Source of the DNA: a virus
Taxonomy: Duplodnaviria; Caudoviricetes
DNA: 41,003 nucleotides
Virus record (IMG/VR): IMGVR_UViG_3300046786_000067
Span: 1 to 41,003 of that record
Reading direction: 5' to 3' (one strand)
Shown piece after piece: positions 1,686 through 40,041 of the stretch. Position numbers and translations under genes: made by a program. Under the pieces are notes generated by a model, which did no database searches, had not been told where the DNA came from, and worked only from the letters and a program-made list of their open reading frames with translations. The number at the start of each line of letters is the position of its first letter. Position 1 is the first letter of the stretch.

Positions 1686-3163
1686 AGTGTGGTTGAGTAA
1701 AGCGTTGTTGTTTTGGAATTAGATGTTGAACTGCTTGTAGTGGCAGAGACGCTAGAACTACCTAAGCCGGGATTGTAAGGTGATGTGCTTGAGGCGGGAG
1801 TGCTTGCAGTTCCACCAAACGTAGCAAATGTTAATGTGGCAGTATGACTGCTAGCTAATGTAAGTGTGGTAGTGCCTGAAGACTTTGAACCGTCAGTTGG
1901 GTATTCAACAAAGAAAGCGTATGCCGTGCTATCGTTATCATAGCCACCACCCCACCCTAAAAGCAGTTTGTCACTGTATAAAGATAATGAAGTTGTTTGC
2001 CCCGGATAGAAAGTGGTGCTGCCTGTTAATGTAATTTTTCTTGCCCATTGCAATACACCACTTGAGTTGTATTTTGCAATTACCACTACAGAACTTTGGG
2101 TAGCCACATAAATATTACCAGCAGAATCTGTGACTGCATATTTCCATGCGGCAGGTACACCTGCGGAAAGGGCTAAAATTCTAACCCATTGAAATGTTAA
2201 TGAGGAATCAAACTTAGCAAGTGTCCCGTACCCACTTGAATTTCCATACCCCCAAATATAGTGCGCACTATTTACACTATCGTACAGTCCACCACTAACA
2301 TAAAATTCTGAAGATACGTTGGTTGGAAATACGCCGTTTGAAGATACATATGCTGGTGGTGTTGCTAAGGTTCTCTTTGTAATACCACCATAATAATTTG
2401 AGCCGTTGTTTCTAGCGCTTCCATAGGTATACAAATAACCGCCTACTTCAGCACAGGCTACGTATATTTTTCTTGCTGGAGTGTTAATGTCATCAAATAC
2501 AAACCATACAGGAACGCCATCAGCCCCAACTTTAACAAGGGTTGTGTAGTATGTGGTGGTTTTGCCGATAACCGCATATCCGGTTGTAGAAACATACACA
2601 TCGCCCGAACCATTTACAAACAATCCTGTAGGTTCATACGAATTAAAAGTGGTAATGCTTCCGCCCACATTCCTATAACCACCTTGAGGCCAATTGGTTT
2701 GCCCCGTAGAGGTGGACAATCTATTTAATACAGGGCCCGGGCCACTACCACTTTGTGCAGTGTAGTAAATTGAACTTCCAGACACCAAAATTTGTCTGAC
2801 ACCATTGTTATTTAAACCAATTTCTTGAGAATAAGAAAGTGTGTAGCTACTGCTGATCTTACTTACAGTCAGATAACTAGTCCCACGCCCTGTGCCGCCA
2901 GCGTATATGTTTCCTGACATATCAAATGTCCCAACACCTGAGGATGCGTTGAAGTTACTTAAGCCGCTAAACCTGTAACTGACGTTACTCTTGCCGTAAA
3001 AATTGCTCAGACTAATCTGACCCGAAGCTACACCTGCCAACGTGCGAAACGATGTGCTGTCGATTGATGCAAGTGCAGTTGCAGATACACCCAACTCAAG
3101 GTTGATCGACTGACCAACCGTAGAGCCACCAAAACTGATTGGACCGGAAGAATTCAGTGCCAT
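1682..3163 (-). CDS. Distal receptor-binding/adhesin protein
   Basis: N-terminal MALNSSGPIS...QISLSNFYGKS cap; Ser/Gly/Tyr-rich beta repeats (AKFDSSLTFQW, AKYNSSGVLQW); AT-richer than flanks. Confidence 0.6.
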   Translation of the reverse strand: MALNSSGPISFGGSTVGQSINLELGVSATALASIDSTSFRTLAGVASGQISLSNFYGKSNVSYRFSGLSNFNASSGVGTFDMSGNIYAGGTGRGTSYLTVSKISSSYTLSYSQEIGLNNNGVRQILVSGSSIYYTAQSGSGPGPVLNRLSTSTGQTNWPQGGYRNVGGSITTFNSYEPTGLFVNGSGDVYVSTTGYAVIGKTTTYYTTLVKVGADGVPVWFVFDDINTPARKIYVACAEVGGYLYTYGSARNNGSNYYGGITKRTLATPPAYVSSNGVFPTNVSSEFYVSGGLYDSVNSAHYIWGYGNSSGYGTLAKFDSSLTFQWVRILALSAGVPAAWKYAVTDSAGNIYVATQSSVVVIAKYNSSGVLQWARKITLTGSTTFYPGQTTSLSLYSDKLLLGWGGGYDNDSTAYAFFVEYPTDGSKSSGTTTLTLASSHTATLTFATFGGTASTPASSTSPYNPGLGSSSVSATTSSSTSNSKTTTLYSTTL

Positions 3164-3172
3164 GTGTAATCC

Positions 3173-4045
3173 TTAGATTGAACCGTATGCGGTCATGTTG
3201 GCAAGCGTTGTCAAGTTACCGCTGCTATCCATGGTTGCAATGGTAGTCGATCCGTATTTAAAAACCAATATTCCACCTGATTCAGAGATGCTGAAGTTAG
3301 TTGTTGTCAGGCTGGTAACGCTACCGCCTAACGTAATGTTGCCAGAACTTGTGACTGTGCCAGACAAAGACAAACCATTGGCTGAACCTGTACCAGATAC
3401 CGAAGTAACTGTGCCCGTGCCGGGGGATGCTGCAGCGATAGTTTGATTAGGCCAAGTGCCTGTGATCGTAATGTTGGAGCCTTGCACTAATCCGGGGGTT
3501 GTTGTCCCAGTACCGCCATTAGCCACAGGTAAAGTGCCTGTGACGTTAGTAGCCAAGTTCACAAAAGTTGTAGAGGTTGTACCTGTACCTCCAGATGTCA
3601 CCGCTAGAGGCGATGCTAATGTTAAAGAAGTCAGATGCGTAATTGCCGCGCCAACATCAGTACCATTGTTATAAACCAAGCAAGCTTTACCATTAGGGAC
3701 AGCCACACCTGTCTGGCCGCTTACCTTCACTGTAACAGCATAGCCACCTACCGAGTTATTTAATACTAAGTATGGTTTCTCAATAGCTGGCACGTTTACT
3801 GTACCTGCGGCGGTTAGCGTAGCCGTAATATTTAAACAAAACGCACGGAAATCTTGCGCACTAGGAGTATTTGAAGCGGACAGAGTTGCAACGTTGGTAG
3901 AAAAATCACCGGATTCAAGCGTGGCCATACCTACGATGGCTTGCTCAATAGCAGTACCAATATTTGTGTTGGTGATACCACCCCATGCGCCATCACTGCC
4001 GCCAACGTCGATGATTTCAAATTTGAGGTTGGAATATGATGACAT
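3173..4045 (-). CDS. Tail fibre-like structural protein
   Basis: LAVTSGGTG / LPVANGGTG fibre repeats; Thr/Gly/Ser-rich. Confidence 0.7.
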   Translation of the reverse strand: MSSYSNLKFEIIDVGGSDGAWGGITNTNIGTAIEQAIVGMATLESGDFSTNVATLSASNTPSAQDFRAFCLNITATLTAAGTVNVPAIEKPYLVLNNSVGGYAVTVKVSGQTGVAVPNGKACLVYNNGTDVGAAITHLTSLTLASPLAVTSGGTGTTSTTFVNLATNVTGTLPVANGGTGTTTPGLVQGSNITITGTWPNQTIAAASPGTGTVTSVSGTGSANGLSLSGTVTSSGNITLGGSVTSLTTTNFSISESGGILVFKYGSTTIATMDSSGNLTTLANMTAYGSI

Positions 4046-19960: not shown

Positions 19961-21502
19961 CTAGTAGTATTCGTACGTCTTACGGCGGAAGAACGATGGT
20001 TCGTCTTGCTCGTCCGTGTCCAAAGAAATAAAGCCGCCTTGCCTGAAGCGCAGCAGCGCCTGTGTTGTCGTATCCACGAAGTCGTCGTGCTCGCCCACAG
20101 GGAAAGCCGCCATCTCTTCAATTACCTCGCGTGCCCAGCGGGTGTCCGGTGCCCAGACTTTACCACTGCTGAATAAATCCGCAACTGCATTGACACGAAC
20201 AGTCTTGTCGTTACCACGGGACGGGCTGAACTCTTGGACGGGGATGCCCATGGCCCTGAGCTCCTGAATCAGCGGCGCCCCCGCCGCTTTCTTCTCAACA
20301 ATAAAAGCATCCGGCTCCCAGTCTTTGTAGTGCTTAAGTGCAACAGTCTTAAGTTCAGGGAAAGCCATGCGATCTTTAAACGCATCCAAAAGGATAAGCT
20401 GGGGCGAATCATTTTCTTCTTCGTTGTAGAAGATGCCCCACGTGGTGCAGGCGCTGTAGTCGGAGTTGTTCTTAGTCTCAAAGGCTGTATCCCATGACTG
20501 GATGATGTATTCACAGCGTGGGGGCTCGTCGCCTTCCCAGATCCGCCACATTTTGCGTGACACGATGGCAGAGTTCTCAGCCGTTGGCTGCTGCATGTAC
20601 TGCGCGTTCCAATACCGTGGGTCGATACTGGCCTTGGTCGATTTCAGAGCTTCTAGCGGCCACTGCTCTGGCCACAGAGACTTCTCGTTCTCTTGGTCTT
20701 CATTGAGGATGGCAGGCAGCTCCACGATCTCCCAAGGTATGGCCTCTGGGTTACGTGCTTGGTAGTCAATCAGGCGGCCAGTCAGGTCAAGCAAGGACCA
20801 ACGGGTCATAATCACAATGATCGCACCCCCCGGCATCAGACGCTGCAAGGGGCCAGTCTGGAACCAAGACCAAGCTGTGTCAAAAGCTAGGCGCGAGTTG
20901 GACTTTACATCTTGTTCTGAATGTGGGTCATCAATAACAAACAAGTCAGCACCACGGCCGGCAAGTGCGCCTCCCACACCAGCAGCGTAATACTGACCGC
21001 CAGCAGAAGTCGACCACTTTCCTGCGGCCTTTTGGTCGTCTGCCACCATAGTTTGTGGAAAAACTTCACGGTATTCCTCCGAGTCAATCAGATTTCGCAC
21101 GCGACGACCGAAGTCTTCCGACAGACCCGCAGTGTGCGTGCCCATGATGATCTTCTTCTCAGGGTACTTGCCTAAAAAATAAGCAGGGAACAGGTATGAG
21201 CTGAACTCAGACTTACCCATACGTGGCGCAATGTTGATAATCACGCGCTTTTTCTTGCCCTCGACCACGTCGGTGAAGATCTTGGCCAGCTTCTTGTGGT
21301 GCGGACCGATCTTGAACCCCGGATACACCGCTTGGGCGAAGCCCAGCATGTTTGTTTTTGCCGCTTGCAGCTTGGCGCGGGACTCGCGCAGCTCCAAATC
21401 TTGGAACAACTCCATCTTTTCTTGGGTGGTCATGTGCGGCAAGGCCTTGGCCATGGCCTCGAGCTCCAGCTTACTGAGCGTTGTGAAGTTTTCAGGCTTC
21501 AT
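19961..21502 (-). CDS. terL: Terminase large subunit
   Basis: Walker A APRMGKS, Walker B FVIDD, MTRW, QSWDTA, HDDFVDT; start at ATG 21502. Confidence 0.95.
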   Translation of the reverse strand: MKPENFTTLSKLELEAMAKALPHMTTQEKMELFQDLELRESRAKLQAAKTNMLGFAQAVYPGFKIGPHHKKLAKIFTDVVEGKKKRVIINIAPRMGKSEFSSYLFPAYFLGKYPEKKIIMGTHTAGLSEDFGRRVRNLIDSEEYREVFPQTMVADDQKAAGKWSTSAGGQYYAAGVGGALAGRGADLFVIDDPHSEQDVKSNSRLAFDTAWSWFQTGPLQRLMPGGAIIVIMTRWSLLDLTGRLIDYQARNPEAIPWEIVELPAILNEDQENEKSLWPEQWPLEALKSTKASIDPRYWNAQYMQQPTAENSAIVSRKMWRIWEGDEPPRCEYIIQSWDTAFETKNNSDYSACTTWGIFYNEEENDSPQLILLDAFKDRMAFPELKTVALKHYKDWEPDAFIVEKKAAGAPLIQELRAMGIPVQEFSPSRGNDKTVRVNAVADLFSSGKVWAPDTRWAREVIEEMAAFPVGEHDDFVDTTTQALLRFRQGGFISLDTDEQDEPSFFRRKTYEYY

Positions 21503-22073
21503 CTGGCTTGTCTTCCGCAACATCGACCACGTCGATCACGCCCATGAACCTGTTGAGCTTGTCTTTGATGCGAGCTTCCAGCTCCACGTCAGACATCTCG
21601 GTCTTCTTGACTTCCACCCGCTCAGTGAACAGCGCAACTTCCGTCACGTTGCCCAGCATCTGCAAAGCTTTGAGCCTGATACGGGCGTCTGGGTGTTTGA
21701 CTTCTTCCAAAATCTGAGCCACGGCGTAGCCGCGAAGTTCTTTGGCCTGCTCAACAAACGCCCAGTCATAGGCGGTGAGCATTCCCACTAGGTGCTGTAC
21801 CGCAGCGGGGGTTTTGACATTGGCTAGCGCTTGTTGCGTATTTGCCACAGGCTGCCCGGTCACCAGAGACGCGAAGGATTTGCGTGCTGCCTCGGCGTCT
21901 GCCTTGGTTTCCACTTCCTCGTCGTCAGCTTCCAGATCCTTGAGCCATTCTGCTGTCTTGACTTTGGCGTCGATGATGTCTGCCGGTTGCACCTTTTCAA
22001 TTGGCGATGGCGCGGCCATGGTGATGTCCACCACGTCTGGTTCAAATTCGCCGTCGATTAGATGTTCAAGCAT
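21492..22073 (-). CDS. Putative terminase small subunit
   Basis: Upstream of and overlapping TerL; helical; RLKALQMLG...LFTERVEV. Confidence 0.65.
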   Translation of the reverse strand: MLEHLIDGEFEPDVVDITMAAPSPIEKVQPADIIDAKVKTAEWLKDLEADDEEVETKADAEAARKSFASLVTGQPVANTQQALANVKTPAAVQHLVGMLTAYDWAFVEQAKELRGYAVAQILEEVKHPDARIRLKALQMLGNVTEVALFTERVEVKKTEMSDVELEARIKDKLNRFMGVIDVVDVAEDKPDEA

Positions 22074-22099
22074 TGCGTAGGGTTAGTACTGGCGTGTAC

Positions 22100-22128
22100 T
22101 TGTTGCCTCGTTGGACACAGTATACAAT
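22100..22128 (+). promoter_or_regulatory. Sigma70-like promoter for putative sRNA
   Basis: TTGTTG-N17-TACAAT. Confidence 0.5.
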
Positions 22129-22148
22129 CAATTCCGGCAACGGTGCAA
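22119..22148 (-). promoter_or_regulatory. Sigma70-like promoter facing terS/late operon
   Basis: Minus strand TTGCAC-N18-TATACT. Confidence 0.45.
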
Positions 22149-22221
22149 CACTTTGTTCATCATTGCTTCTCCTTGAGGTTCGCCTCCTTGAAGCCCCGGC
22201 TAAACCCCGGGGCTCTTTTTT
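22135..22221 (+). ncRNA. Putative antisense sRNA complementary to the early-gene RBS motif
   Basis: Promoter upstream; seed TCATTGCTTCTCCTTG (22160-22175); GAGG-TTCG-CCTC hairpin; terminator. Confidence 0.6.
22192..22221 (+). terminator. Intrinsic terminator
   Basis: AGCCCCGG-CTAAAC-CCGGGGCT then CTTTTTT; no plus-strand CDS upstream to account for it. Confidence 0.8.
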
Positions 22222-22264
22222 ATTGTGCCGTGTCCAACGTTTGACTATTAGTTCTTTGAATTTT

Positions 22265-22786
22265 TTATAGTGGGGTGGGGGGTGTTGTTTTGCGCGGTCT
22301 GCCAACGTTTTTCCTATTTGCCGTTTGCGCATCTAGCGTGGCCCAGCGGCAGTTGTCCAAAAAATATCCGAGATCCCCGTCGATGCGGTCAATCGTTGTG
22401 CCCTCTGGTCTTGGCCCCATGTCTTCGTAGAAACATATCCAACCTGTTTTGCCGTCCTCACCAAAGCGCCAGCGGTCATACACCTCGATGCCGCTTCCGC
22501 CATACTTTGGGTAGCTTGGATACTTCGGGTTAGTGCACCTGCCAATCATGGCCTGCCACGAGCTGTGCGTGAACTCACGTCTCTCCTCCAGCGCCTTGTC
22601 TACCAAAGCTTTTACAAACTTCTCCCGGTAGCACCCACAAGATTTTGTAAGTCCTGCCTTGAGCTTGTCTTGCAGCACCACGCTGGTTTTGCCACAGTCA
22701 CACAAACACAACCAACGTTTTCTGTAATGGGCGTCTGTACTGGCGAGGCTTTGCACCACTAACTGCCCGAATCTTTGGTTTTGCAT
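22265..22786 (-). CDS. Free-standing HNH homing endonuclease-like protein
   Basis: RFGQLVV..WLCLCDCG..KSCGC; W.AMI.RC; YGGSGI; TIDRIDGD.GY..DNCRWAT; ATG 22786 with GGAG. Confidence 0.85.
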   Translation of the reverse strand: MQNQRFGQLVVQSLASTDAHYRKRWLCLCDCGKTSVVLQDKLKAGLTKSCGCYREKFVKALVDKALEERREFTHSSWQAMIGRCTNPKYPSYPKYGGSGIEVYDRWRFGEDGKTGWICFYEDMGPRPEGTTIDRIDGDLGYFLDNCRWATLDAQTANRKNVGRPRKTTPPTPL

Positions 22787-23031: not shown

Positions 23032-23424
23032 ATGACTACACAAAACGAAACCCAAGCCTTTGCAGTTCTAGACAAGTTCGCTGACTCCCGCGTTGCGCTC
23101 ATCCAAGGCATGAAGGATGCAGGCTACACCACGCTCGAGCAGTGCGAACCTATCGTGATTAAGTGGGCATGCGCTCGAACTGGCGCGAAGTGGAGCACTA
23201 GCAAGTCAGGCAAGGTCATGATGGTGACAGCAGACCCCAAGTTCAGTTCAGCCAAGACAGCCAAGCGTGACGTCATGCTCATGCTCCAAGGTCAGACGCG
23301 CCGTAACGCCAAGCCCTCGAATGGCAAGACCGAACCCACAGACAATGTAGCTAAGATTATTGAGGCTTTTAACAAACTCTCTGCAACAGAGCAACGCAAG
23401 GTGCTCAAGGCTTTGGCCGTTTAA
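23032..23424 (+). CDS. First early gene, hypothetical
   Basis: CAAGGAGAA RBS; 130 aa. Confidence 0.8.
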   Translation: MTTQNETQAFAVLDKFADSRVALIQGMKDAGYTTLEQCEPIVIKWACARTGAKWSTSKSGKVMMVTADPKFSSAKTAKRDVMLMLQGQTRRNAKPSNGKTEPTDNVAKIIEAFNKLSATEQRKVLKALAV

Positions 23425-23443: not shown

Positions 23444-23521
23444 CTTTTCGTAGAAGCGTGAGAGCAAGAGGCTCTTGCGCTGTTTCATTTCTTGTCCAAC
23501 TCAACTCAAAGGTAAATAATC

Positions 23522-24116: not shown

Positions 24117-24408
24117 TGTCCGTGTGTATAGTGCACTTGCTAAGAAGCGTGTAACCCCGCAACCCGCATGAATACTGGCGCTCCGCAATTTGCGTCCAAT
24201 ATATATAATTTTTTATTTATTTATATATATAAGAGAGAGTATTTATGGGGGTGAGCATTTTTCCGTGAGCAAGGACAGACACTTTTGTCCAAGCCTTTTA
24301 GCATTTCAAAAAAAAACTATATATCGCGGACACTTTTCAACCAACGCTAGTATTCATGCGGGTTCAGAACCTACACGATTCTTAGCAAGTGCTTCATACA
24401 CATGGACA
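24117..24408. repeat. Origin-like element: 64-bp imperfect inverted repeats around AT-rich core
   Basis: Arms 24117-24180 and 24345-24408 match 52/64 by hand; A/T-only run at ~24198-24232. Confidence 0.75.
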
Positions 24409-25186: not shown

Positions 25187-25253
25187 TTTTATGCCGTGAG
25201 CAAGGCGGGGCTGTTGCCCCTGCCCATATTATTTTTAACCCAAGGAGAAGCAA

Positions 25254-25433
25254 ATGAAATACGAAATTACTGTGGACTACACAGACGATGGGCAGTTCGT
25301 TGTTATCTATGACGATGAGCGCAAAGCCCGAGCATTCATCGAAGAAGAACTTAAGTGGGAAACCACTAAGCGGGTGCGTTGCCCGAGCCTGATGGTTGAC
25401 CAAGCGGGTGACTTTGCAAGCTTTACTAAATAA
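25254..25433 (+). CDS. Hypothetical 59-aa protein (MKYEITVDY...)
   Basis: Translated by hand; CAAGGAGAAGCAAATG RBS. Confidence 0.75.
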   Translation: MKYEITVDYTDDGQFVVIYDDERKARAFIEEELKWETTKRVRCPSLMVDQAGDFASFTK

Positions 25434-25444
25434 GGAGAAAGCAA

Positions 25445-25636
25445 ATGAAATCATGTAGAAACTGTGAGATAGCAAAACACGATGGTTACTTCCATGTCAG
25501 GCTGATATGCGGGCTGACTAGGAAAGTAATCGTGCCGTTCTCTAAGCACCTAGAAGAAAACAAGCAATCCGATGCCTTTGCACAGCGCGAAGCTAAGTAC
25601 TGTTCAGCATACACACCCGAAGGAGAAAGCAAATGA
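25445..25636 (+). CDS. Small Cys-containing protein
   Basis: CRNC...C...C; shared RBS motif. Confidence 0.75.
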   Translation: MKSCRNCEIAKHDGYFHVRLICGLTRKVIVPFSKHLEENKQSDAFAQREAKYCSAYTPEGESK

Positions 25637-25857
25637 AAACGAAACACAAAACAAATGTCCAACTCATCAACGATCTGATGTCCCACTCACAGCAAGGGCC
25701 ACTGATGCAGGCGTTCATCATCGAGGCACTCCATGCCTACGCCAAACAGGTCAAGGCATCCAAGAGCAACCCCGAGTGGGCGGCACAAGCCTTCATCAGT
25801 TGGCACTCATGGGGTGTCTGCGCTGAGGAAGTTCTCGAAGCTATCAACAACCGCTAG
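25633..25857 (+). CDS. Hypothetical protein
   Basis: Shared RBS motif; ATGA coupling. Confidence 0.75.
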   Translation: MKTKHKTNVQLINDLMSHSQQGPLMQAFIIEALHAYAKQVKASKSNPEWAAQAFISWHSWGVCAEEVLEAINNR

Positions 25858-25887
25858 TAACTAACCACAACCCAAGGAGAAAACATA

Positions 25888-27618
25888 ATGACTGCATCTA
25901 CATACAACGGCCACGACATGTGGAATATCTTTAGCCTAGCGTCTCGCGCTGTTATCAGTGTCGACTATAGACTGCGCATGGACTGGCTCAACGAGGGCGA
26001 CATCGACAAGTGCACCGAGATCTCGGCTAAGCGTGACGAGCGTGGGTGGGTACGCCACCAGATCGAGCGGTTCGAGCTGCACCCTGTTATCAAAGCAGCT
26101 ATCGCGGTGTGCCGTCCTCGTGACTGGCATCAGTTGTTCCTCGAGTGGCCTCACATGTCAGAGAACGATCGCTCTCGCATCGCATACACACAGAACGAGG
26201 ACAAGGGCAAGCGTGACATACAGACTGTCACATCGGTGGGCAAGTACCTCACTCGCCACTTCGACATGCCTGACCACACCATCCGCGATCTCGTTGCGCG
26301 CTACGGCACAGCGTCCACATTCAAGTTCGTGCATACCACAGCCGAGATGATCTACCACCTACACAAAGGCCCAGGTTCGTGCATGGTATGGCGTGACGAT
26401 CGCGGTGTGCACTGTCGTGACGGCGTGACGCGTCACCCCTATGAGGCATACAACCCCAAGTACGGGTGGCACATGGCTGTGCGTATCGATGGCGATGAGA
26501 CTGTCGGCCGTGCGCTGTGCATGACCAACCCCGACACAGGGTTCAAGTACTTCGTGCGTACCTACGCTAGGCCTGCCAATCAGGGCGGGTACAGCGAGAC
26601 CGACAACGCCATGGAGAACTGGCTTCGTGAGCAGGGGTACAGCAAGCACACATCGTGGGACAACGGCGAGCGTCTGTCCCTCTACGAAACACGCGATGAC
26701 TTCTTAGCTCCGTACCTTGACGGCGGTGACAAGCGTGTGTCTATTGACGCAGACAACAACTGCATCGTGGTTGACAGTGACGGCGAGTATGCGTGTGACC
26801 AGACTGGCGGTGCACCGACTGAGCTGAGTGCCAACACCTTCGAGTGCGAGGACTGCGGTGACGACACCGATGACGATGATGGCTACTGGGTCGGCTACAA
26901 CGATGACTCCCATGTGTGCGTCAGCTGTTATGAGAACGACTACGTGTATGGCTATGGTCGCAACGGCCGTCAGTATTCATTCCGCAGTGACGATGCTACC
27001 TATATCGAGTCGCAGTCCGAGTACTTCCATGACAACTACCTTGCTGACAACGAGATCGTTGAGCTTGAGAACGGTGAGTACGAGCACATCGAGAACGCCA
27101 TCGAGGTTGACGGCGAGTGGTACCACATTGATGACGAGCGCATCTGCCGTACCGAGGACACCGATGAGTTCCTGCTGTGCGACAACGGATGCTGGCAGTG
27201 CGAGGAGTCAGGCAAGTGGTACACCGACAGCGTTGACTACGTTGAGGTAGATGACAAGAAGTATCACCCTGACTGCGCCCCTGCTACTGACGATGACGAT
27301 GACGAGGATGGTGGCGACACTGCCGTGGCTGTTGACCCTGTCGTTGCTACCCTTGTCGTTCCTGCTCCTGTCGTTGCTAAACAGTTGACCATAGAGATGC
27401 TCAATGAGTGTGCGCTATGGGAGGAGCACTGCTCCGTTACACAACGCGTGACTTACAGCATCAGCATCCGGCACAACGGCAACATGCTTCGCGCTTCGCG
27501 TACCTACCGAGACGGCTTCATCGCATCACAAGGCGTTGACTGGATGCGTGTGAATGTGCGCAGAGTACTTAGCAACGAGATCCTCGGCTTACCCGCATCA
27601 ACATTCGACTCAATCTAA
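25888..27618 (+). CDS. Large early protein with acidic Cys-rich repeat region
   Basis: GSCM...GRALC...VRTY...PYLD core, then CEDC/CVSC and Asp/Glu/Tyr-rich repeats. Confidence 0.8.
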   Translation: MTASTYNGHDMWNIFSLASRAVISVDYRLRMDWLNEGDIDKCTEISAKRDERGWVRHQIERFELHPVIKAAIAVCRPRDWHQLFLEWPHMSENDRSRIAYTQNEDKGKRDIQTVTSVGKYLTRHFDMPDHTIRDLVARYGTASTFKFVHTTAEMIYHLHKGPGSCMVWRDDRGVHCRDGVTRHPYEAYNPKYGWHMAVRIDGDETVGRALCMTNPDTGFKYFVRTYARPANQGGYSETDNAMENWLREQGYSKHTSWDNGERLSLYETRDDFLAPYLDGGDKRVSIDADNNCIVVDSDGEYACDQTGGAPTELSANTFECEDCGDDTDDDDGYWVGYNDDSHVCVSCYENDYVYGYGRNGRQYSFRSDDATYIESQSEYFHDNYLADNEIVELENGEYEHIENAIEVDGEWYHIDDERICRTEDTDEFLLCDNGCWQCEESGKWYTDSVDYVEVDDKKYHPDCAPATDDDDDEDGGDTAVAVDPVVATLVVPAPVVAKQLTIEMLNECALWEEHCSVTQRVTYSISIRHNGNMLRASRTYRDGFIASQGVDWMRVNVRRVLSNEILGLPASTFDSI

Positions 27619-27639
27619 TCAATCCCTAAGGAAACAATC

Positions 27640-28776
27640 ATGACTAAATCTACACAACCTATCATCCTTCGCACACTTGAACGTGCCTTATCTCGCAAGC
27701 GTCCACACAACACCTTCGAGGTGGCGGTCTTCACAACGTGGCTGTTCGAGAACCTGCCTGCTGAACTCAAGTCCTTCTGCCATGTCGATGAGGCAGGTAA
27801 CCTGCACGTTGACAATCGTGTGCGTAACAACAAGACGCTGTTCATTGCGCACGTTGATACTGTCCATCGTGACACAGGTGTCAACAAGATACGCAAGACA
27901 CAAACCCACTGGTATGCAGACGGCGCACCTCTCGGCGCTGACGATGGTGCAGGCTGTGCCATGCTCATGCATTTAATACATAGTGGAGTCAAGGGTTACT
28001 ACATCTTCAGCCAAGGCGAGGAGTGCGGTGGCATCGGCGCCAAGCACATCGCTAACAACAACTCTGCCCTGCTCAAGCAGTTCGATCGTGCCATTGCGTT
28101 CGACAGGCGAGGTATCGACAGCGTCATCAGTCATCAGGGCATGGGTCGCTGTGCATCCGACAACTTCTGCCTAGCCCTTGCGTCTGCGCTCAACGAGCAC
28201 AATGACTTGCTTATGTATTCGCCTGATGACACAGGTGTGTACACCGATACCGCTGAGTTCACCGATGACATACCCGAGTGCACCAACATCAGCGTGGGCT
28301 ACTACAACGAGCACGGCGAGCGTGAGAACCTTGACATCGTGCACTTCACAGCACTGGCCAAAGCTGCTGTCCTCGTTGACTGGGATGCCCTGCCTACTGA
28401 GCGTGACCCCACTGTGCCCGACTACAAGAGCTACAAGTACGGCAACTACGACACCGCATGGTGGTCAGGCTACGGCGTGTACAAGGATGACAAGGACGCT
28501 ACCGATGTGCCATACACATGGCAAGATGACGATGGGTACTTTGCTACCGAGATGCTGTTCGATGCTCTTTACGATGCGCAAGCTGGGTACAAGGATGACC
28601 TCATTGACATGATCTCTGAGTGTGTGTACCCCGAAGACCCACTCATGGCGGTCAAGTTCCTCGACAAGCGCAAGCTGACTGACGACTTATTAGAAGAGGC
28701 CAAGCAGATGGCCCGAGCCTACGACTCATCGACTGTGCTGTGCACACTGTTCGATGCTATTCACTGTGAAGCTTAA
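27640..28776 (+). CDS. Zn-dependent M20/M28-like peptidase
   Basis: AHVDTVH, LGADDGAG, GEECGGIG, AFDRRG, YNEH. Confidence 0.8.
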   Translation: MTKSTQPIILRTLERALSRKRPHNTFEVAVFTTWLFENLPAELKSFCHVDEAGNLHVDNRVRNNKTLFIAHVDTVHRDTGVNKIRKTQTHWYADGAPLGADDGAGCAMLMHLIHSGVKGYYIFSQGEECGGIGAKHIANNNSALLKQFDRAIAFDRRGIDSVISHQGMGRCASDNFCLALASALNEHNDLLMYSPDDTGVYTDTAEFTDDIPECTNISVGYYNEHGERENLDIVHFTALAKAAVLVDWDALPTERDPTVPDYKSYKYGNYDTAWWSGYGVYKDDKDATDVPYTWQDDDGYFATEMLFDALYDAQAGYKDDLIDMISECVYPEDPLMAVKFLDKRKLTDDLLEEAKQMARAYDSSTVLCTLFDAIHCEA

Positions 28777-28796
28777 TTAACCCAAGGAGAAAGCAA

Positions 28797-29042
28797 ATGA
28801 CTGACGCAGAACTACAACTGGTGGTCGATGACCTCATCGCCAAATACAAAGACGAGATCGTTAAGGATCGTGACTGGTGGTGGGGACTAGACAAGTACAC
28901 AATCAACATCCACTCGCTTAATGAGGACGGCGATGATTGGTACAGCGTGAATGTGTACAAGGTTGATCCAGTCACGGGCATGGACAACTATGAGTGGATG
29001 CTCGACTTGCCCCGTGTGTTTATCAAAGGAGAAAGCAAATGA
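28797..29042 (+). CDS. Hypothetical protein
   Basis: Shared RBS motif. Confidence 0.75.
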   Translation: MTDAELQLVVDDLIAKYKDEIVKDRDWWWGLDKYTINIHSLNEDGDDWYSVNVYKVDPVTGMDNYEWMLDLPRVFIKGESK

Positions 29043-29404
29043 ACGGACTAGACGCTTACTACGATGGCCTACTGGCCGAACATCAACGCAAGCTAGACAA
29101 GGAGGCTTACGACGAGGAGAAGATGGATAAGCTGACAGAGTGGATTAGCGAGCTACTCGAAGACAACCACCCCGCTGAACTTGAGCGCCTGACAGGGGTG
29201 GACGATACAACCTGTAAGAAGGTGGTGCACAAGCTGTACATGGAGGGGTTCAATGACCGCAACTGTTGGCACGTCGAACCTTCGGGCGACATCTGGGTTA
29301 TCTACGGCAATAGCACAGGTGAATGGATAGACGAGAACGGCGATTACCTTGGCTTCGATACCAAGCGCGAAGCTATGGACTACATCAAGGAGACATTCAA
29401 ATGA
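29039..29404 (+). CDS. Hypothetical acidic protein
   Basis: Start MNGLD at 29039 after shared RBS motif. Confidence 0.75.
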   Translation: MNGLDAYYDGLLAEHQRKLDKEAYDEEKMDKLTEWISELLEDNHPAELERLTGVDDTTCKKVVHKLYMEGFNDRNCWHVEPSGDIWVIYGNSTGEWIDENGDYLGFDTKREAMDYIKETFK

Positions 29405-29493
29405 TGACACCATGGGAAAAACTAGAACGCGTAGTACTTTTAGTTGCAGTACTTGTACTACTAACAGATCTTTTTTACTGGCGTCCCTATTGA
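29401..29493 (+). CDS. 30-aa membrane peptide MMTPWEKLERVVLLVAVLVLLTDLFYWRPY
   Basis: Translated by hand; AAGGAG RBS; ATGA coupling. Confidence 0.6.
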   Translation: MMTPWEKLERVVLLVAVLVLLTDLFYWRPY

Positions 29494-29520
29494 CAACAGT
29501 CCAACGCTGTACAAATAATA
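29490..29520 (+). promoter_or_regulatory. Possible sigma70 promoter
   Basis: Perfect TTGACA, weak AT-rich -10; GTCCAAC motif in spacer. Confidence 0.4.
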
Positions 29521-29540
29521 TCAACCCCAAGGAGAAAATA

Positions 29541-29759
29541 ATGAAACACACACCTTACGATACGGGCAAGGTCAAGATCGGCCTTCTCTACACACCCCCA
29601 TCCCCTACACCTACGCCCGAAGATGACTGGGTACAAGGCGTACTGCTAGGGGACAGACAAGGTCTCACAGACCTAGAACGCACCACCATTCAATCCCTTG
29701 TGGCTATCGCCATCATTGTTCTCGTCATGCTACTTACTGGAGGATCCTCAAATGCCTGA
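29541..29759 (+). CDS. Small protein with C-terminal TM
   Basis: MKHTPYDTGKVKIG start with CAAGGAGAA RBS. Confidence 0.7.
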   Translation: MKHTPYDTGKVKIGLLYTPPSPTPTPEDDWVQGVLLGDRQGLTDLERTTIQSLVAIAIIVLVMLLTGGSSNA

Positions 29760-30399
29760 CATGCAAACCGCTATGAAACAAGCCCTAACCAAAACATTAG
29801 TTGAGTGGGATGACGATGATGCCCCGCCCCTTCCTTCTGTTCAACCAGTGTCAACCTCTGTATCCGCACCTTCTCAAGCAATCCCCATGACCACACAACT
29901 CTTTACCATCAAGAACAACATCTCACGCACCACATTCAATTACATCCGTGACAACCCCGGCTCTACGCGTAAGGAGATCATCATTGCGCTTGAGCATTTA
30001 GGCTATAAGTCTGACTCGGTATCAAGCCTGATCGCGCAGATGTACAAGAACAAAATGATCCACTCAACCAACGACTTGTACTACGCAGACATCCCTGAGT
30101 ACAGACCTATCAAGACGGCCAAAGCCCTGAAGAAAATCCAAGCCAAAGCTGAGTTGGTCAAGCCCAAGCGCAAGTACACTAAGAAAGATACGACCGGCAT
30201 CGGTGCGCTGTTGAGAGACAAGCTGGAAGCTACGCCTAACCCTGTGTACCATGAAGATCAGACACCGCCTATCGTGCCTGAGCGCAAAGGCTTCGTGTCT
30301 TTGGTACGCAACCGCACACCCGAGAGCATCATCGACAACATGACTGTGTATCAGGCGCGTGAGTTATACGATCACCTGAAGAAATTGTTTGGGGGTTAA
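29752..30399 (+). CDS. Winged-helix-like DNA-binding protein
   Basis: FNYIRDNPGSTRKEI...SVSSLIAQM pattern; start MPDMQ at 29752. Confidence 0.6.
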   Translation: MPDMQTAMKQALTKTLVEWDDDDAPPLPSVQPVSTSVSAPSQAIPMTTQLFTIKNNISRTTFNYIRDNPGSTRKEIIIALEHLGYKSDSVSSLIAQMYKNKMIHSTNDLYYADIPEYRPIKTAKALKKIQAKAELVKPKRKYTKKDTTGIGALLRDKLEATPNPVYHEDQTPPIVPERKGFVSLVRNRTPESIIDNMTVYQARELYDHLKKLFGG

Positions 30400-30400
30400 G

Positions 30401-30601
30401 ATGCAAGAGAAATATGACGGCGGCCCAGCGTTTCCAACGCATCTAAATCTGACTCAAGGTATGACACTGCGTGACTACTTTGCGGCGCTGGCTATGCAGG
30501 CGTACTTGTCAAGTACTGGTGGGGCTTCTGCCCCTAATGACATGGTTGCGCGTGAAGCGTACAAAACAGCGGATGAAATGATGAAAGCGAGAGAACAATG
30601 A
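30401..30601 (+). CDS. Conserved small phage protein
   Basis: GGPAFP...GMTLRDYFAALAMQ...AY..AD.M. Confidence 0.75.
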   Translation: MQEKYDGGPAFPTHLNLTQGMTLRDYFAALAMQAYLSSTGGASAPNDMVAREAYKTADEMMKAREQ

Positions 30602-30831
30602 ACATCACAATCTACACCAAGGCTAACTGCCCCAACTGCACAACGGCCAAGATGGTCATGGACATGGCGGGGCTTGACTACAACGAGGTTGACATCATGG
30701 TGGGCGACCGCTTGGGTAACTTCCTCAAAGAGTTCCCTGACGCTAAGCAGATGCCGCAGATATTCATCAACGACCAGCGCGTGGGTGGTGTGGCCGGCCT
30801 GCAAGCCGCAATGAAACAGTTGGGGTATTGA
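30598..30831 (+). CDS. Glutaredoxin
   Basis: IYTK..CPNC, MPQIFI, VGG. Confidence 0.9.
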   Translation: MNITIYTKANCPNCTTAKMVMDMAGLDYNEVDIMVGDRLGNFLKEFPDAKQMPQIFINDQRVGGVAGLQAAMKQLGY

Positions 30832-30832
30832 C

Positions 30833-31081
30833 ATGACAGTTCTCAACCCATGGGAAGAACTCGCGCAGGTTGACCGCCCGAGTATCTTCTTGAAAGACCC
30901 ATACTTCCGTGCGAAGAACCCTAGCAATCAGATCAAGAGTGAGGAAGACCTTGGATACAAACAGTTTGGCACATTCACCCGAGCCAAAGAACGACAACCC
31001 AACAAGCATGAAGGAGTACTTGAACATGCCCCGACCAAAGCCCCCCGCCCCCCTAAAGGCACGATACGTACGTTTAAGTGA
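30833..31081 (+). CDS. Hypothetical protein
   Basis: Fills operon between glutaredoxin and next gene. Confidence 0.55.
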   Translation: MTVLNPWEELAQVDRPSIFLKDPYFRAKNPSNQIKSEEDLGYKQFGTFTRAKERQPNKHEGVLEHAPTKAPRPPKGTIRTFK

Positions 31082-31238
31082 CGCGGAGTGGGAGAAGTTT
31101 CAAGAGATGGGCGGTGCTGCTTGGTTACGCAAGGCCATGGGCACAAGGCCACGGAACTATTACGAAGTATTCGAGCGTCCACGCAACCCCGCCGACGCTG
31201 TATTTTTAAACCGCAAGGAGAAAGAACGAAATGATTAG
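31026..31238 (+). CDS. Ribbon-helix-helix-like small DNA-binding protein
   Basis: MPRPKP...RYVRLSDAEW..F..MGG..WLR; AAGGAG RBS. Confidence 0.6.
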   Translation: MPRPKPPAPLKARYVRLSDAEWEKFQEMGGAAWLRKAMGTRPRNYYEVFERPRNPADAVFLNRKEKERND

Positions 31239-31596
31239 TAACGATAAACAGATGGACTTGTTTGATGGGCGCTACGTGCCGCCCAAGAATGCCAACGATG
31301 CACAGCCGCTTAAAGCGGCAACCGCTGTCGATGCTACCTTGGCCGAGCGCGGTAAGCGATACGGCACATTCAAGGGGCACGCTGAGGTAAGCCAAGCGTT
31401 CAAAGATCTGCTGGCCATTGCCTTGGAGAAGCGCGGGAAGTTGCTTGACTGTGACCAACAGGAAGCCCTTGAGATGATCTTTCACAAGATTGCACGCATC
31501 GTCAACGGCGACCATAAATACCACGACTCATGGCATGACATCGCAGGCTACGCCAAGCTGGTGGCTGATCGTCTTGAGACAGGCAAGGAAGTGTGA
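31231..31596 (+). CDS. DUF6378-like protein (nucleotide pyrophosphohydrolase-like helical family)
   Basis: TLAERGKRYG.F...KIARI...DSWHDIAGYAKL. Confidence 0.7.
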   Translation: MISNDKQMDLFDGRYVPPKNANDAQPLKAATAVDATLAERGKRYGTFKGHAEVSQAFKDLLAIALEKRGKLLDCDQQEALEMIFHKIARIVNGDHKYHDSWHDIAGYAKLVADRLETGKEV

Positions 31597-31907
31597 TGGC
31601 CGCAACACCCGAAGCAAAAGTCAAAACTGCTGTACGAAAGATACTTGATGCACTCGACATTTACCACTTCATGCCCCCCGCTAATGGTTTTGGCCGAGCG
31701 GGTATACCTGACATCATTGGCTGCATGGACGGACACTTCATCGCCATCGAATGCAAAGCAGGCAAAGGACAGACCACCGCTCTTCAAGACAGGGAACTCA
31801 ACGCCATCCTCAACCATGGCGGAACCGTGTACATCGCACGGGAGCACAACCTGCTTGAGTTGAAACAACTACTGACGGAGCTACGCAATGAGCTACATAG
31901 ACCATGA
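31593..31907 (+). CDS. VRR-NUC nuclease / resolvase-like
   Basis: TPEAKVK...GIPDII...FIAIECKA...TALQ. Confidence 0.85.
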   Translation: MMAATPEAKVKTAVRKILDALDIYHFMPPANGFGRAGIPDIIGCMDGHFIAIECKAGKGQTTALQDRELNAILNHGGTVYIAREHNLLELKQLLTELRNELHRP

Positions 31908-32184
31908 CTTCTCAATGACAGAGGAAGAACTCGAGCGCCGAGTCGAGGCCATGTCAGACGAGGAGCAACACCACTTCAGACTACTGATCCACAAGTTGGT
32001 GATGTGCTATGGCGATGGCAAGGCGCAAGGCATTGTCATCATTGGCCGTGCTGAAGATCAAATGGCAGGAGTCGTTACCCTAAACTGTAACGAGATGGAG
32101 GCGTCGCAACTCATGTTGGCGGCAAACGATTTTTTCGGCTTTCTAAACCTCCTCGACGCACCACCAAAAGAAAACTTTAATTAA
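31888..32184 (+). CDS. Hypothetical protein
   Basis: GGAG RBS; in operon. Confidence 0.7.
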   Translation: MSYIDHDFSMTEEELERRVEAMSDEEQHHFRLLIHKLVMCYGDGKAQGIVIIGRAEDQMAGVVTLNCNEMEASQLMLAANDFFGFLNLLDAPPKENFN

Positions 32185-32200
32185 CAACAAGGAGAAAGCA

Positions 32201-32428
32201 ATGGCAAAACTACCATACACATACACAATATGCCCCGATCAAGAGGTGCCCAAGCAGTTCACTGCAAGCTGCGCAGACATGGGGGAGCTACTACGGCACA
32301 GCCCTAACGGAGACCTGACCATCAATCAGAAACGCACCGCTACATGGGACATGTGGTCAGGCAATCACATGGGGCACATTGAGGAAGCACTACAAAAAAT
32401 TTGTGCAAAAAACAAGGAGAAGCAATGA
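32201..32428 (+). CDS. Hypothetical protein
   Basis: Shared RBS motif. Confidence 0.7.
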   Translation: MAKLPYTYTICPDQEVPKQFTASCADMGELLRHSPNGDLTINQKRTATWDMWSGNHMGHIEEALQKICAKNKEKQ

Positions 32429-33899: not shown

Positions 33900-34502
33900 A
33901 TGCGAAGGTTGGAGTTAGTAGGCAAGGTTTTTGGTAGGCTAACAGTACGCGGCCCTGCGCCGCGTACCTACCAAACGATGTGGGATTGCGTTTGTGCCTG
34001 CGGCAGTACAAAAAACGTGTCGGGAATAAACCTTACGTCTGGGCACACACAATCTTGTGGCTGCTTGCGTGAAGAACTGCGCCCCACCTACGCCAAACGG
34101 CGCGACTACACAGGCCGTAACAACCCCAGAGCGAAAGCCAGTATCGCATTGAATGGCGGAGACTACGTTTCTTCAGACAGTGTTTGGTACAAGCGCTCAG
34201 CAGGCGTGTACTATGCTGCGCGTAAAAACAAAGTAAAGATGGGTTTTCGTTCTGTGTCTGAGCTTGCCACTTATGTGGTCAGCATCGTACCGGATAGATG
34301 CCCCGTGTTTAACAAACGCTTCGTTGAGCGCGGCGCAGGGTTTAGTAACTGGTCTCCGAGCATTGACAAGATTGACCCAAAGAAAGGTTATGTGCGAGGC
34401 AACATACAAGTCATCAGCATGCTGGCCAACTGCATGAAAAGAAACGCATCACCCAAAGAGCTTCGCACTTTTGCGCAGTGGGTATTAAAGGAGAAGCAAT
34501 GA
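33900..34502 (+). CDS. HNH homing endonuclease-like protein
   Basis: GKVFGRLTV..WDCVCACG..QSCGC; CPVF...PSIDKIDPKKGYVRGNIQVIS..AN.MK. Confidence 0.85.
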   Translation: MRRLELVGKVFGRLTVRGPAPRTYQTMWDCVCACGSTKNVSGINLTSGHTQSCGCLREELRPTYAKRRDYTGRNNPRAKASIALNGGDYVSSDSVWYKRSAGVYYAARKNKVKMGFRSVSELATYVVSIVPDRCPVFNKRFVERGAGFSNWSPSIDKIDPKKGYVRGNIQVISMLANCMKRNASPKELRTFAQWVLKEKQ

Positions 34503-36494: not shown

Positions 36495-36782
36495 ATGAAG
36501 TTCAGAAAGAAACCTGTGGTTATTGAGGCCGTGCAGATAGATAAACGCATGGACATTACCGCCCCTGATTGGTGGGCAAAGGCTATACAAACAAAGCGAG
36601 TGACATTACATGGCATGGGAAAGTTTACTCGTGACGAGCCGTGCGTTTTAATTGCCACCCTTGAAGGTACTATGCGAGGCGACCGTGGTGACTGGATCAT
36701 TCAAGGCGTGAGCGGTGAGCTGTACCCATGCAAGCCTGACATCTTTGATGCAACATACGAAAAAGTAGAGGAGAAGCAATGA
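36495..36782 (+). CDS. Conserved phage protein
   Basis: KFRKKPVVIEAVQ...TLEG.M...GDWII.GV.GE.YPCKPDIF..TYE. Confidence 0.8.
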   Translation: MKFRKKPVVIEAVQIDKRMDITAPDWWAKAIQTKRVTLHGMGKFTRDEPCVLIATLEGTMRGDRGDWIIQGVSGELYPCKPDIFDATYEKVEEKQ

Positions 36783-37994: not shown

Positions 37995-38009
37995 AAGCTT
38001 GGAGAAGCA

Positions 38010-39569
38010 ATGGAAATCGTAGAAGACAAAGCACTTATCTTACGCACAAGGAACCCACACAAGTACTCAATCATCCCTAAGAGCAAAGCCATGCCCCGTG
38101 CAGACGGAGGCTACGATGTCGCTGTTTACTGGGGTCTTGACGAAGCGCGGGTGTTGCGTAACCTAGGTGTCAAAGATGTGCCGTCGCCTATCACTAGGCG
38201 CTATGACTGGCCGGGGCGTTATAAGCCCATGGCGCACCAGATCGAGACTGCATCGTTCCTCACGATGTACAGGAGAGCCTTTGTGTTCTCTGAACCCGGT
38301 ACTGGCAAGACGCTGTCTGCATTGTGGGCGGCTGACTACCTGATGAAACTACGCAAGGTGCGTAGGGTTCTGATCCTGTGCCCCCTGTCAATCATGCACA
38401 GCGCATGGATGGGTGACATCAACAACAGCATCATTCATCGCTCGGCCGTTATCGCGCACCATCCTCAAGCTAGTCGGCGCATCGAGATGATTCAGCGTGA
38501 CTATGAGATCGTCATCACCAACTACGAGGGGCTGAACCTGATCGCGGATGAGGTACGCAACGATGGCCGCTTTGATCTGGTGATTGTCGATGAGGCCAAC
38601 GCATACAAGACGCCTACGACCAAGCGATGGAAGTCGCTCAACTCCATCCTGACACCCAATACATACCTGTGGATGATGACCGGTACGCCTGCATCGCAGT
38701 CGCCTGTGGATGCGTATGGCCTAGCCAAACTGGTGAACCCCGAGAACGTGCCCAAGTTCTACACCGCATGGCGCGATCAAGTGATGAACAAGATCAGCAT
38801 GTTCAAGTGGGCGGCCAAGGCAGATGCCAAGGACAAGGTGCACGAGGCCTTGCAGCCCGCGATACGCTTTACCAAAGCACAGTGCCTTGACTTACCGCCA
38901 GTCATCACCATGACGCGTGAGGTTGCCCTGACCCCACAGCAAGCGAAGTACTACAACATGCTCAAGGAGCGCATGCTGGTGCAAGCCGCAGGCGAGACGA
39001 TCACCGCTGTTAACGCTGCCGCTGGTGTATCCAAGCTGTTGCAAATCAGTTGCGGTGCGGCGTATACCGATGACAAGGAAGTTGTGGAGTTTGACTCTGC
39101 GCCTCGCCTTGCAGTGCTCGAGGAAATCCTGGAGGAGACGAGCCGCAAGGTCATCATCTTCGCTCTGTTTCGAAGCACCATCGACACGATCAGCAACTAC
39201 CTCACGAAGAAGGGCATTGTCAACGAGTGCATTCACGGAGACATCACGCCAAGCAAGCGGGGTATAACGATCAACCGATTCCAAACCGAGGACAACCCAA
39301 GGGTGTTGGTCATGCAGCCTGCGGCTTCAGCCCATGGCATCACGCTGACAGCTGCCGATACTGTGGTGTTCTATGGCCCATTGATGAGCGTTGAGCAGTA
39401 CATCCAGTGCTGTGCACGCGCTGACCGCAAGGGACAGGACTCGGACAAAGTTACTGTGATTCACATTCAGAGTAGCCCGATCGAGAAGAAGATGTTTAAA
39501 GCGTTGGAAGGAAAAGTTAGCGATAACTTACTACTGACCGACATGTTCGAAACTGAAATTAAATCTTGA
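38010..39569 (+). CDS. SNF2-like SF2 helicase
   Basis: EPGTGKT, IVDEA, MTGTP, HGITLT, Q...RADRKGQ. Confidence 0.9.
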   Translation: MEIVEDKALILRTRNPHKYSIIPKSKAMPRADGGYDVAVYWGLDEARVLRNLGVKDVPSPITRRYDWPGRYKPMAHQIETASFLTMYRRAFVFSEPGTGKTLSALWAADYLMKLRKVRRVLILCPLSIMHSAWMGDINNSIIHRSAVIAHHPQASRRIEMIQRDYEIVITNYEGLNLIADEVRNDGRFDLVIVDEANAYKTPTTKRWKSLNSILTPNTYLWMMTGTPASQSPVDAYGLAKLVNPENVPKFYTAWRDQVMNKISMFKWAAKADAKDKVHEALQPAIRFTKAQCLDLPPVITMTREVALTPQQAKYYNMLKERMLVQAAGETITAVNAAAGVSKLLQISCGAAYTDDKEVVEFDSAPRLAVLEEILEETSRKVIIFALFRSTIDTISNYLTKKGIVNECIHGDITPSKRGITINRFQTEDNPRVLVMQPAASAHGITLTAADTVVFYGPLMSVEQYIQCCARADRKGQDSDKVTVIHIQSSPIEKKMFKALEGKVSDNLLLTDMFETEIKS

Positions 39570-39576
39570 AAGGGGC

Positions 39577-39619
39577 TTGCAACGAATCAAATTACATGTA
39601 AACTGTCCAACCTTAGACA
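39577..39619 (+). promoter_or_regulatory. Promoter with overlapping operator-like palindrome
   Basis: TTGCAA-N16-TAAACT then TGTCCAACCTTAGACA. Confidence 0.5.
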
Positions 39620-39639
39620 ACAAAACAACAGGAGAAGCA

Positions 39640-40041
39640 ATGGAAGAAGAAGCAATACCGCTTGATAAGCTTGTCAAAATCTACCGCAAGCTACGCACGA
39701 AGATGACCGAACTGACCCAAGAGTACGACACCAAAACGGAAGTGCTCAAGGCGCAACAGGACGAGGTCAAGAACGCTATCAAGGAACAGATGAAGGCGAT
39801 GGGCGTCACATCCGTTCGCACTACCGAGGGCACGGCAGTCATGTCCGTGAAGACTCGCTACACCACACAAGACTGGGACTCGTTCAAGAAGTTCATGATC
39901 GAGCACGAGGCCATCGACCTGCTTGAGAAGCGCATTGCGCAACTCAACATGGCACAGTTCTTGGAAGAAAACCCCGGGGTCGTACCGCCCGGTCTCAACT
40001 CAGCTTCTGAGTATGACATCTCTGTACGCAAACCAACGTGA
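39640..40041 (+). CDS. Conserved replication-module protein (coiled-coil N-terminus)
   Basis: SVRTTEGT...DWDSF..F...LLEKRI.Q...PPG; shared RBS motif. Confidence 0.75.
   Translation: MEEEAIPLDKLVKIYRKLRTKMTELTQEYDTKTEVLKAQQDEVKNAIKEQMKAMGVTSVRTTEGTAVMSVKTRYTTQDWDSFKKFMIEHEAIDLLEKRIAQLNMAQFLEENPGVVPPGLNSASEYDISVRKPT

Follow-up and report, generated by a model that had tools for sequence, protein, structure and literature searches.

A candidate small RNA gene at the terminase promoter of uncultured phages, predicted to repress early genes through a shared ribosome-binding-site tag

The window, meaning the whole stretch of DNA analysed here, is a fragment, 41 kb long, from the genome of an uncultured phage. 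Minus-strand structural genes extend to position 22073, and plus-strand early and replication genes start at 23032. The late arm is led by a probable terminase small subunit gene (terS), whose name rests on its position before terL; the terS protein matched no PHROG family and no Pfam family above cut-off. The terL product is about 50% identical to those of pelagiphages HTVC023P and HTVC027P, and 82-96% identical to those of 80 IMG/VR contigs, its closest relatives. Sequencing runs that contain window DNA are mostly from freshwater. Metagenome-assembled genomes (MAGs) carrying terL relatives come from mixed taxa and do not pick out a single host. The abundance of the family is estimated at about 2,400-3,400 stored stretches. 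Two HNH genes are present in the window (22265-22786 and 33900-34502). The first is missing from a related contig, where 22245 joins 22828, and therefore looks like a recent insertion.

An earlier note, made from the sequence alone, placed a promoter, a seed, a hairpin and a terminator on the plus strand between 22100 and 22221, and each of these lies where it was said to lie. The features of the locus are:

19961-21523: terL, matching PHROG 38
21492-22073, minus strand: probable terS, directly before terL, leading the late arm
22100-22128, plus strand: predicted sRNA promoter (-35 TTGTTG at 22100-22105, 17 nt, -10 TACAAT at 22123-22128)
22119-22148, minus strand: predicted terS/late promoter, TTGCAC-18-TATACT, the only match in the window
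22128-22163, minus strand: 11-aa mini-ORF behind the mirrored ribosome-binding site (RBS), judged a by-product
22136-22167, plus strand: helix P1, G-U-rich, predicted to cover the seed half complementary to spacer and AUG
22136-22221, plus strand: predicted 86-nt sRNA, its start inferred from the -10 (fold z -3.2)
22160-22175, plus strand: seed TCATTGCTTCTCCTTG, the reverse complement of CAAGGAGAAGCAATGA
22168-22174, plus strand: predicted single-stranded toehold UCUCCUU, part of the seed
22175-22186, plus strand: hairpin P2 in the fold, GAGG-UUCG-CCUC
22192-22221, plus strand: intrinsic terminator, one-directional (stem 22192-22214 plus T run)

A simple promoter scan of the window did not list the sRNA promoter (8/12 matches); conservation supports it. 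In 120 of 133 homologues the TTG lies exactly 17 nt ahead of this -10, the remaining three -35 letters being variable; a conserved CCTCG box inside the promoter (22106-22110) is found in 118 of the 133. (The promoter-pattern search that supplied part of this sample used the box and the -10; the plus-strand TTG lay outside the pattern.) Moreover, the -10 region is near-palindromic and common to the sRNA promoter and the opposite-strand terS promoter, a feature absent from the earlier note. The terS promoter has its TTG at 18-nt spacing in 126 of the 133 homologues, which were partly selected by the pattern search, and is visible by eye also in relatives that lack the RNA. The predicted sRNA has a median length of 85 nt among these homologues (range 73-129).

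In the terS leader (22074-22112, minus strand) no Shine-Dalgarno (SD) sequence lies near the ATG of terS; on this strand the CCTCG box is read as CGAGG, with small variable hairpins in the interval. In the RNA-less relatives terS is almost leaderless. Directly past the sRNA terminator, at 22231-22245, stands the palindrome TGTCCAACGTTTGAC, a possible operator or packaging signal, which recurs at 39604-39618 and has half-sites at 23493, 24423 and 25656 (plus strand) and at 22117 (minus strand). It occurs in the first 190 nt of 78 of 201 upstream regions, and overlaps a promoter-like TTGACT-19-TATAGT.

Conservation of the unit was followed at two depths. For 78 of the 80 nearest terL relatives a terS hit was obtained; 12 of these were too short, and all of the other 66 carry the unit (66/66, one by eye). 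The wider sample comprised 328 loci, 313 of them with a terS start and 18 too short, yielding 201 distinct upstream regions; these are distinct sequences rather than independent lineages, and part of them came from the promoter-pattern search. The unit stands beside terS in about 180 of the 201: a script found 158, and inspection by eye of the other 43 gave 20 with the unit, 20 without, two inverted and one variant. The RNA-less clade represents a single loss (SH-aLRT 99 in a quick tree), with no relocated copy of the unit in its fetched stretches. A profile of the unit likewise found no match in the fetched stretches of HTVC023P, HTVC027P, DSL-LC04 and Pra-JY27 (terL identity 44-53%), and the unit has no nucleotide match among cultured or deposited phages. 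The sRNA reaches no Rfam family's gathering score.

Several variants are informative in themselves. The profile search showed the unit inverted in two relatives, G029 and L403, where it has a near-consensus TTGACA promoter of its own. In these stretches (L415:11205-11330, minus strand, and L403:4900-5060) the inverted unit also contains two anti-SD segments, and the terS promoter comes next. A longer version, with two anti-SD segments, lies upstream of terS in L407, L409, L413 and L418 (G026-G030), where terS starts with TTG and has a full SD. The unit also occurs in a phage-like stretch of an 84-kb MAG contig (L290:9191-9290, minus strand; terL identity 67%). In DSL-LC04, which is metagenome-assembled (PMC10611076, from the available part of that source), a promoter-like site, two anti-SD segments and a terminator all follow the DNA polymerase gene (L083:27961-28070, minus strand). 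Matches of this unit to its own phage's starts are weak, reaching 10 nt at most.

Expression was looked at in four sequencing runs, as assembled contigs. One RNA run (X8) gave seven contigs, at least 99% alike, that cover terL, terS (to 22096), the HNH gene and also 25671-25892. Among the listed pieces, none spans 22136-22221; since assembled contigs reveal neither short RNAs nor strandedness, the runs speak neither for nor against expression.

Which strand carries the function? The seed, read on the minus strand, is a mirrored RBS, and it is followed in the window by a correctly spaced ATG. The site could thus be merely the RBS of the mini-ORF, or the relic of a lost small gene. Such an ATG is present in 99 of 158 homologues. 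However, it is absent from the other 59, and 43 have no ATG, GTG or TTG at all; the ORFs that do occur differ freely in frame, length and peptide, and the terS promoter is found further downstream. Missing start codons and an unconserved frame and peptide already largely refute this reading, which we regard as scarcely credible.

The structural features point to the plus strand as well. No A-run precedes the terminator stem in 151 of 158 homologues, and GNRA or UNCG loops number 57 in plus-strand folds versus two in minus-strand folds, so that tetraloops and U-run both suit the plus strand. In 131 of 133 RNAs the UCUCC toehold is predicted to stay open (unpaired at p>0.5), and at least five of the nine nucleotides ahead of it pair with the 5' strand in 125 of the 133, by pair types that change and include many G-U. 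The predicted order is constant across homologues: helix P1; open UCUCCUU; hairpin P2; terminator. Hairpin variants are numerous (76 middle and 93 terminal among the 158 homologues, some calls being mis-assigned). These statements come from single-sequence folds, not from a formal covariation test. We judge that this free-standing promoter-to-terminator unit, conserved with no conserved ORF, probably acts as a plus-strand RNA, with the mini-ORF as a dispensable by-product.

A DNA-level element, operator or packaging signal, with a terminator that merely stops antisense read-through, would account for the position beside terS and the conserved palindrome. It accounts poorly for three other observations: the inverted units that have their own promoter; stems that keep pairing, many G-U pairs included; and a whole RNA-less clade that packages its DNA without the unit. 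This possibility appears very improbable. Indeed, that the unit occurs in either orientation argues for a diffusible product.

What would such an RNA recognize? The earlier note named five uninterrupted matches that cover start regions in the plus-strand arm. All five are present at the claimed lengths, with a further 13-nt match at 25241. The predicted targets, spread over 15 kb, are:

25241-25256, plus strand: start of a 59-aa gene (25254), 13-nt match, -18.6 kcal/mol
32413-32428, plus strand: start of a 61-aa gene (32425), 16-nt match, -15.7 kcal/mol
34488-34502, plus strand: DNA polymerase start, 15-nt match, -17.3 kcal/mol
36769-36782, plus strand: start of a 101-aa gene (36779), 14-nt match, -19.5 kcal/mol
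38001-38012, plus strand: helicase start, 12-nt match, -12.1 kcal/mol
39630-39642, plus strand: start of a 133-aa gene (39640), 13-nt match, -17.0 kcal/mol
25432-32203, plus strand: five one-base-longer copies GGAGAAAGCA (25434, 25622, 28786, 29028 and 32191), which would pair with a bulge

The one-base-longer form GGAGAAAGCA does not occur on the minus strand of the window. The mirror of the seed has 10 matches at no more than three mismatches versus 0.45 expected, and none of 100 shuffles reached 10. Nine of the 10 are on the early strand; the sole reversed copy is the seed itself. A strict form of this tag, an extended GGAG signature, precedes 13 of 38 early starts and none of 31 late starts. 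The RNA thus has an accessible, conserved seed complementary to start regions encoded elsewhere.

Binding energies tell the same story. The 86-nt RNA was cofolded with each start region, unfolding cost included, giving a mean net binding of -10.2 kcal/mol for early versus -4.9 kcal/mol for late starts. As the earlier note expected, early starts outrank late ones: predicted binding is -10 kcal/mol or stronger at 21 of 38 early starts and one of 31 late starts. Plain SD sites are themselves somewhat stronger at early starts (-7.8 versus -6.3), and a control was therefore made in which the anti-SD was held fixed and the other nine nucleotides of the seed were randomised. Randomised seeds equalled the real one on early starts in 0 of 600 trials, and on late starts in 158 of 600. 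It follows that the part of the seed outside the anti-SD is tuned to early starts.

Seed and tag also change together between lineages, a check that the earlier note had proposed. Each genome's RNA was scored against every genome's early starts, for 27 genomes and also for 15 representatives. Outside the matrix are G008 and G011 (duplicates of G010 and G003); G012, G014, G017, G023 and G032 (no or a short replication arm); G013 (terS beyond the fetched part); and G015 (not fetched). RNAs fit their own early starts better than foreign ones: no permutation of 10,000 did as well in either set, genomes being treated as independent of kinship. The same permutation on late starts gave 167 of 10,000 for the 27 genomes and 438 of 10,000 for the 15 representatives; the former value is inflated because, in two genomes, the late starts included the RNA's own mirror ORF.

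The fit differs between lineages. The RNA of a genome ranks first or second on its own starts in 13 of the 27, and the window fits its own RNA best of all (mean of the top five matches 14.2 nt). Some pairs are private, including those of G007 (AAGAGGAGAAGTAA) and G040 (AGGAGAAGCGACA). G001 and G024 have a three-A form in both seed and tag, and G026-G028 a GGAGG core in both. The seed of the inverted unit of G029 matches a private early tag (ACAAACGAAAGGAAAA) over 16 nt, ranking first of 27. In six genomes (G005, G009, G016, G022, G037 and G039), however, the own RNA ranks only 11-22 of 27; own targets are few in some lineages (G016, G037), and polymerase and helicase are untagged in some relatives. 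The best top-five match is 7.0-9.8 nt in the RNA-less clade, overlapping the low end of the RNA-bearing range (7.6-14.2 nt). The strict tag count is zero in all five RNA-less genomes, and also in G003 and G039, both of which have the common seed. Because the clade represents one loss event, and because of these two further zeros, the missing tags lend weak support.

The toehold is a plain anti-SD, so the RNA could instead be a general anti-SD mimic directed at host mRNAs, a means of host shut-off, fitting phage genes because RBS usage is shared. The stronger SD sites at early starts and the scarcity of own targets in G016 and G037 are compatible with this. It is nonetheless improbable, given that, past the anti-SD, the seed is fitted to the early starts of the phage and co-varies with them, and that the tag is nearly absent from bacteria: four freshwater bacterial MAGs, not shown to be hosts, have one match in 9.7 Mb total.

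Every comparative test made here supports the earlier note's core reading with respect to a conserved plus-strand unit, a dispensable mini-ORF, an early-over-late preference and co-variation. It needs qualification as to the regulon, whose breadth varies, six of 27 genomes fitting their own RNA no better than a foreign one. As judged from sequence and folding models, the element is probably the gene of a trans-acting anti-RBS sRNA of about 85 nt, which would repress early and replication genes through a shared tag. Pairing of the RNA with early starts is the firmer part, and we consider it very likely. That seed mirror and tag change together across lineages further suggests that the RNA switches tagged early genes off as a group.

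Several known systems offer comparisons. The c4 RNA of phages P1 and P7 is also a structured RNA made by the phage, one that blocks translation through pairing at a ribosome-binding region of the phage, and its sequence differs between related phages; however, its target is the ant mRNA of a temperate phage (PMC12197685, in the text available), whereas up to about 20 separate early genes are predicted targets here. Moreover, the sRNA does not match the Rfam C4 model; its targets are dispersed rather than forming an adjacent antirepressor operon, as C4 or CI membership would imply; and no integrase or antirepressor was matched in PHROG among the 65 proteins of the window (an incomplete record). 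The element therefore resembles c4 in its working, RBS occlusion by a phage RNA, but is not a c4 member.

Bacteria themselves encode multi-target base-pairing sRNAs with anti-SD seeds, including GcvB, cuckoo/CcsR and MmgR/suhB. The predicted sRNA is like these in size, in its seed-plus-terminator layout and in RBS occlusion; they differ in being host-encoded and in having targets that are not tagged by one shared motif, and the Rfam scores of the predicted sRNA fall far short of the gathering level (21 versus 41-50 bits).

The nearest analogues are T4 RegB and the start-associated sequences (SAS) of cluster K mycobacteriophages. T4 shuts off early mRNAs that carry an extended SD signature and spares late ones, and the RegB site, GGAGRAYARAA, resembles the tag described here, which likewise marks early and not late starts. 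RegB, however, is a protein that cleaves together with S1 (PMC1702504, as far as the available text goes), whereas here an RNA, with a seed that varies along with the tag, is the predicted reader. The proposed sRNA would do by RNA what T4 does with a nuclease. The resemblance of the two sites also raises another explanation: the tag might be read by a protein, a RegB-like nuclease or RegA-like repressor, with the RNA guiding, titrating or protecting rather than blocking alone. No RegB-like protein was matched in the window (an incomplete record, in which most small proteins have no family), and a protein reader leaves seed/tag co-variation and the conserved toehold unexplained. We hold this explanation to be improbable also.

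In cluster K, the SAS is an RBS tag private to these phages; it precedes 11-19 non-structural genes and also occurs once in reverse (PMC3203893, in the part available). The available text of a 2024 paper still calls its function unknown, and reports that late transcription starts in the gap holding the reversed copy (PMC11373665). Folding places the reversed SAS in the loop of a stable hairpin (z -3.5 and -6.2), and the region is common to 182 records. In Adephagia and Anaya (L441:13662-13714, L440:29850-29902) the hairpin is long and lies in a conserved, structured non-coding gap of about 300 nt. The window shows the same pattern, a repeated RBS motif limited to non-structural genes plus one reversed copy, but this is an analogy: the cluster K sequence and host are unrelated, and the hairpin loop sits in a probable late leader rather than in a promoter-terminator unit. 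The loop is absent in two of seven aligned phages and altered in two others whose SAS stayed unchanged; co-variation of loop and SAS, sought in Ekdilam and Cain, was not found there. Cluster K is therefore an analogue and not proof.

These observations suggest a model for how the RNA might act. Promoter, three stems and terminator are kept beside terS. Host sigma70 polymerase would transcribe the RNA from the promoter whose -10 is also part of the terS promoter, most likely after the onset of late transcription; timing is the least certain step. The open UCUCCUU toehold is predicted to dock on the AAGGAGA site. Displacement of the G-U-rich helix P1 is then predicted solely for mRNAs whose sequence runs on into the tag (AGCAAUG and variants), a gate that would give selectivity over late and host messages with a plain SD. 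With SD and AUG covered, as in known RBS-pairing sRNAs, 30S loading would be blocked and ribosomes would move to late mRNAs.

Late expression is suggested by the linkage of the unit to the terS promoter. The converse timing, for the same RNA and the same targets, is also conceivable. In bidirectional promoters, activating one direction tends to repress the other (PMC12825309, in the accessible portion of that source), so the shared -10 would make the two directions competitors and late activation of terS could lower the RNA or shut it off. The RNA would then be made early, or in a stalled or carrier state, and would dampen the early programme or block superinfecting relatives that share the tag, as in C4-like immunity. 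The inverted copy of G029 and L403 has a promoter that needs no activator, and seeds are lineage-specific, as immunity determinants are. Against this, no integrase was found, as described above; the unit stays at the terS promoter region even when inverted; and the analogous cluster K loop sits at the start of late transcription (PMC11373665, from its available text). We consider early or carrier-state timing rather unlikely, and on balance favour the RNA as a late switch.

More broadly, these elements may constitute an RNA-addressed translational regulon: a private early RBS barcode, read by one toehold-gated sRNA from the promoter of the packaging genes, turning the whole early arm off. The same logic might have arisen separately in cluster K mycobacteriophages, and would explain the SAS. 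This wider proposal stands at about even chances. Literature searches of main texts, largely open-access, found no description of such an arrangement; supplementary lists of candidate RNAs could contain the motif. To our knowledge, early-gene shut-off in lytic phages has been credited to proteins. If the proposal is true, a single RNA that reads an RBS tag across the genome would add a new level of timing control in phages, and would do so in a freshwater family that is abundant. The cluster K SAS motifs would gain a direct test, in cultured phages of M. smegmatis, and the natural seed/tag pairs of different lineages would be candidate orthogonal translation switches.

Three further features of these genomes were noted. 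Long inverted-repeat arms (24140-24185 and 24347-24390), seen by eye, surround an AT-rich stretch that is a possible replication origin. A 215-aa protein (29752-30399), whose own RBS is untagged, has weak PHROG matches to transcription regulators and is a candidate late activator. Finally, the DNA polymerase gene of one relative (G031:C1:22831-25674) is interrupted in frame by about 290 codons, possibly an intein.
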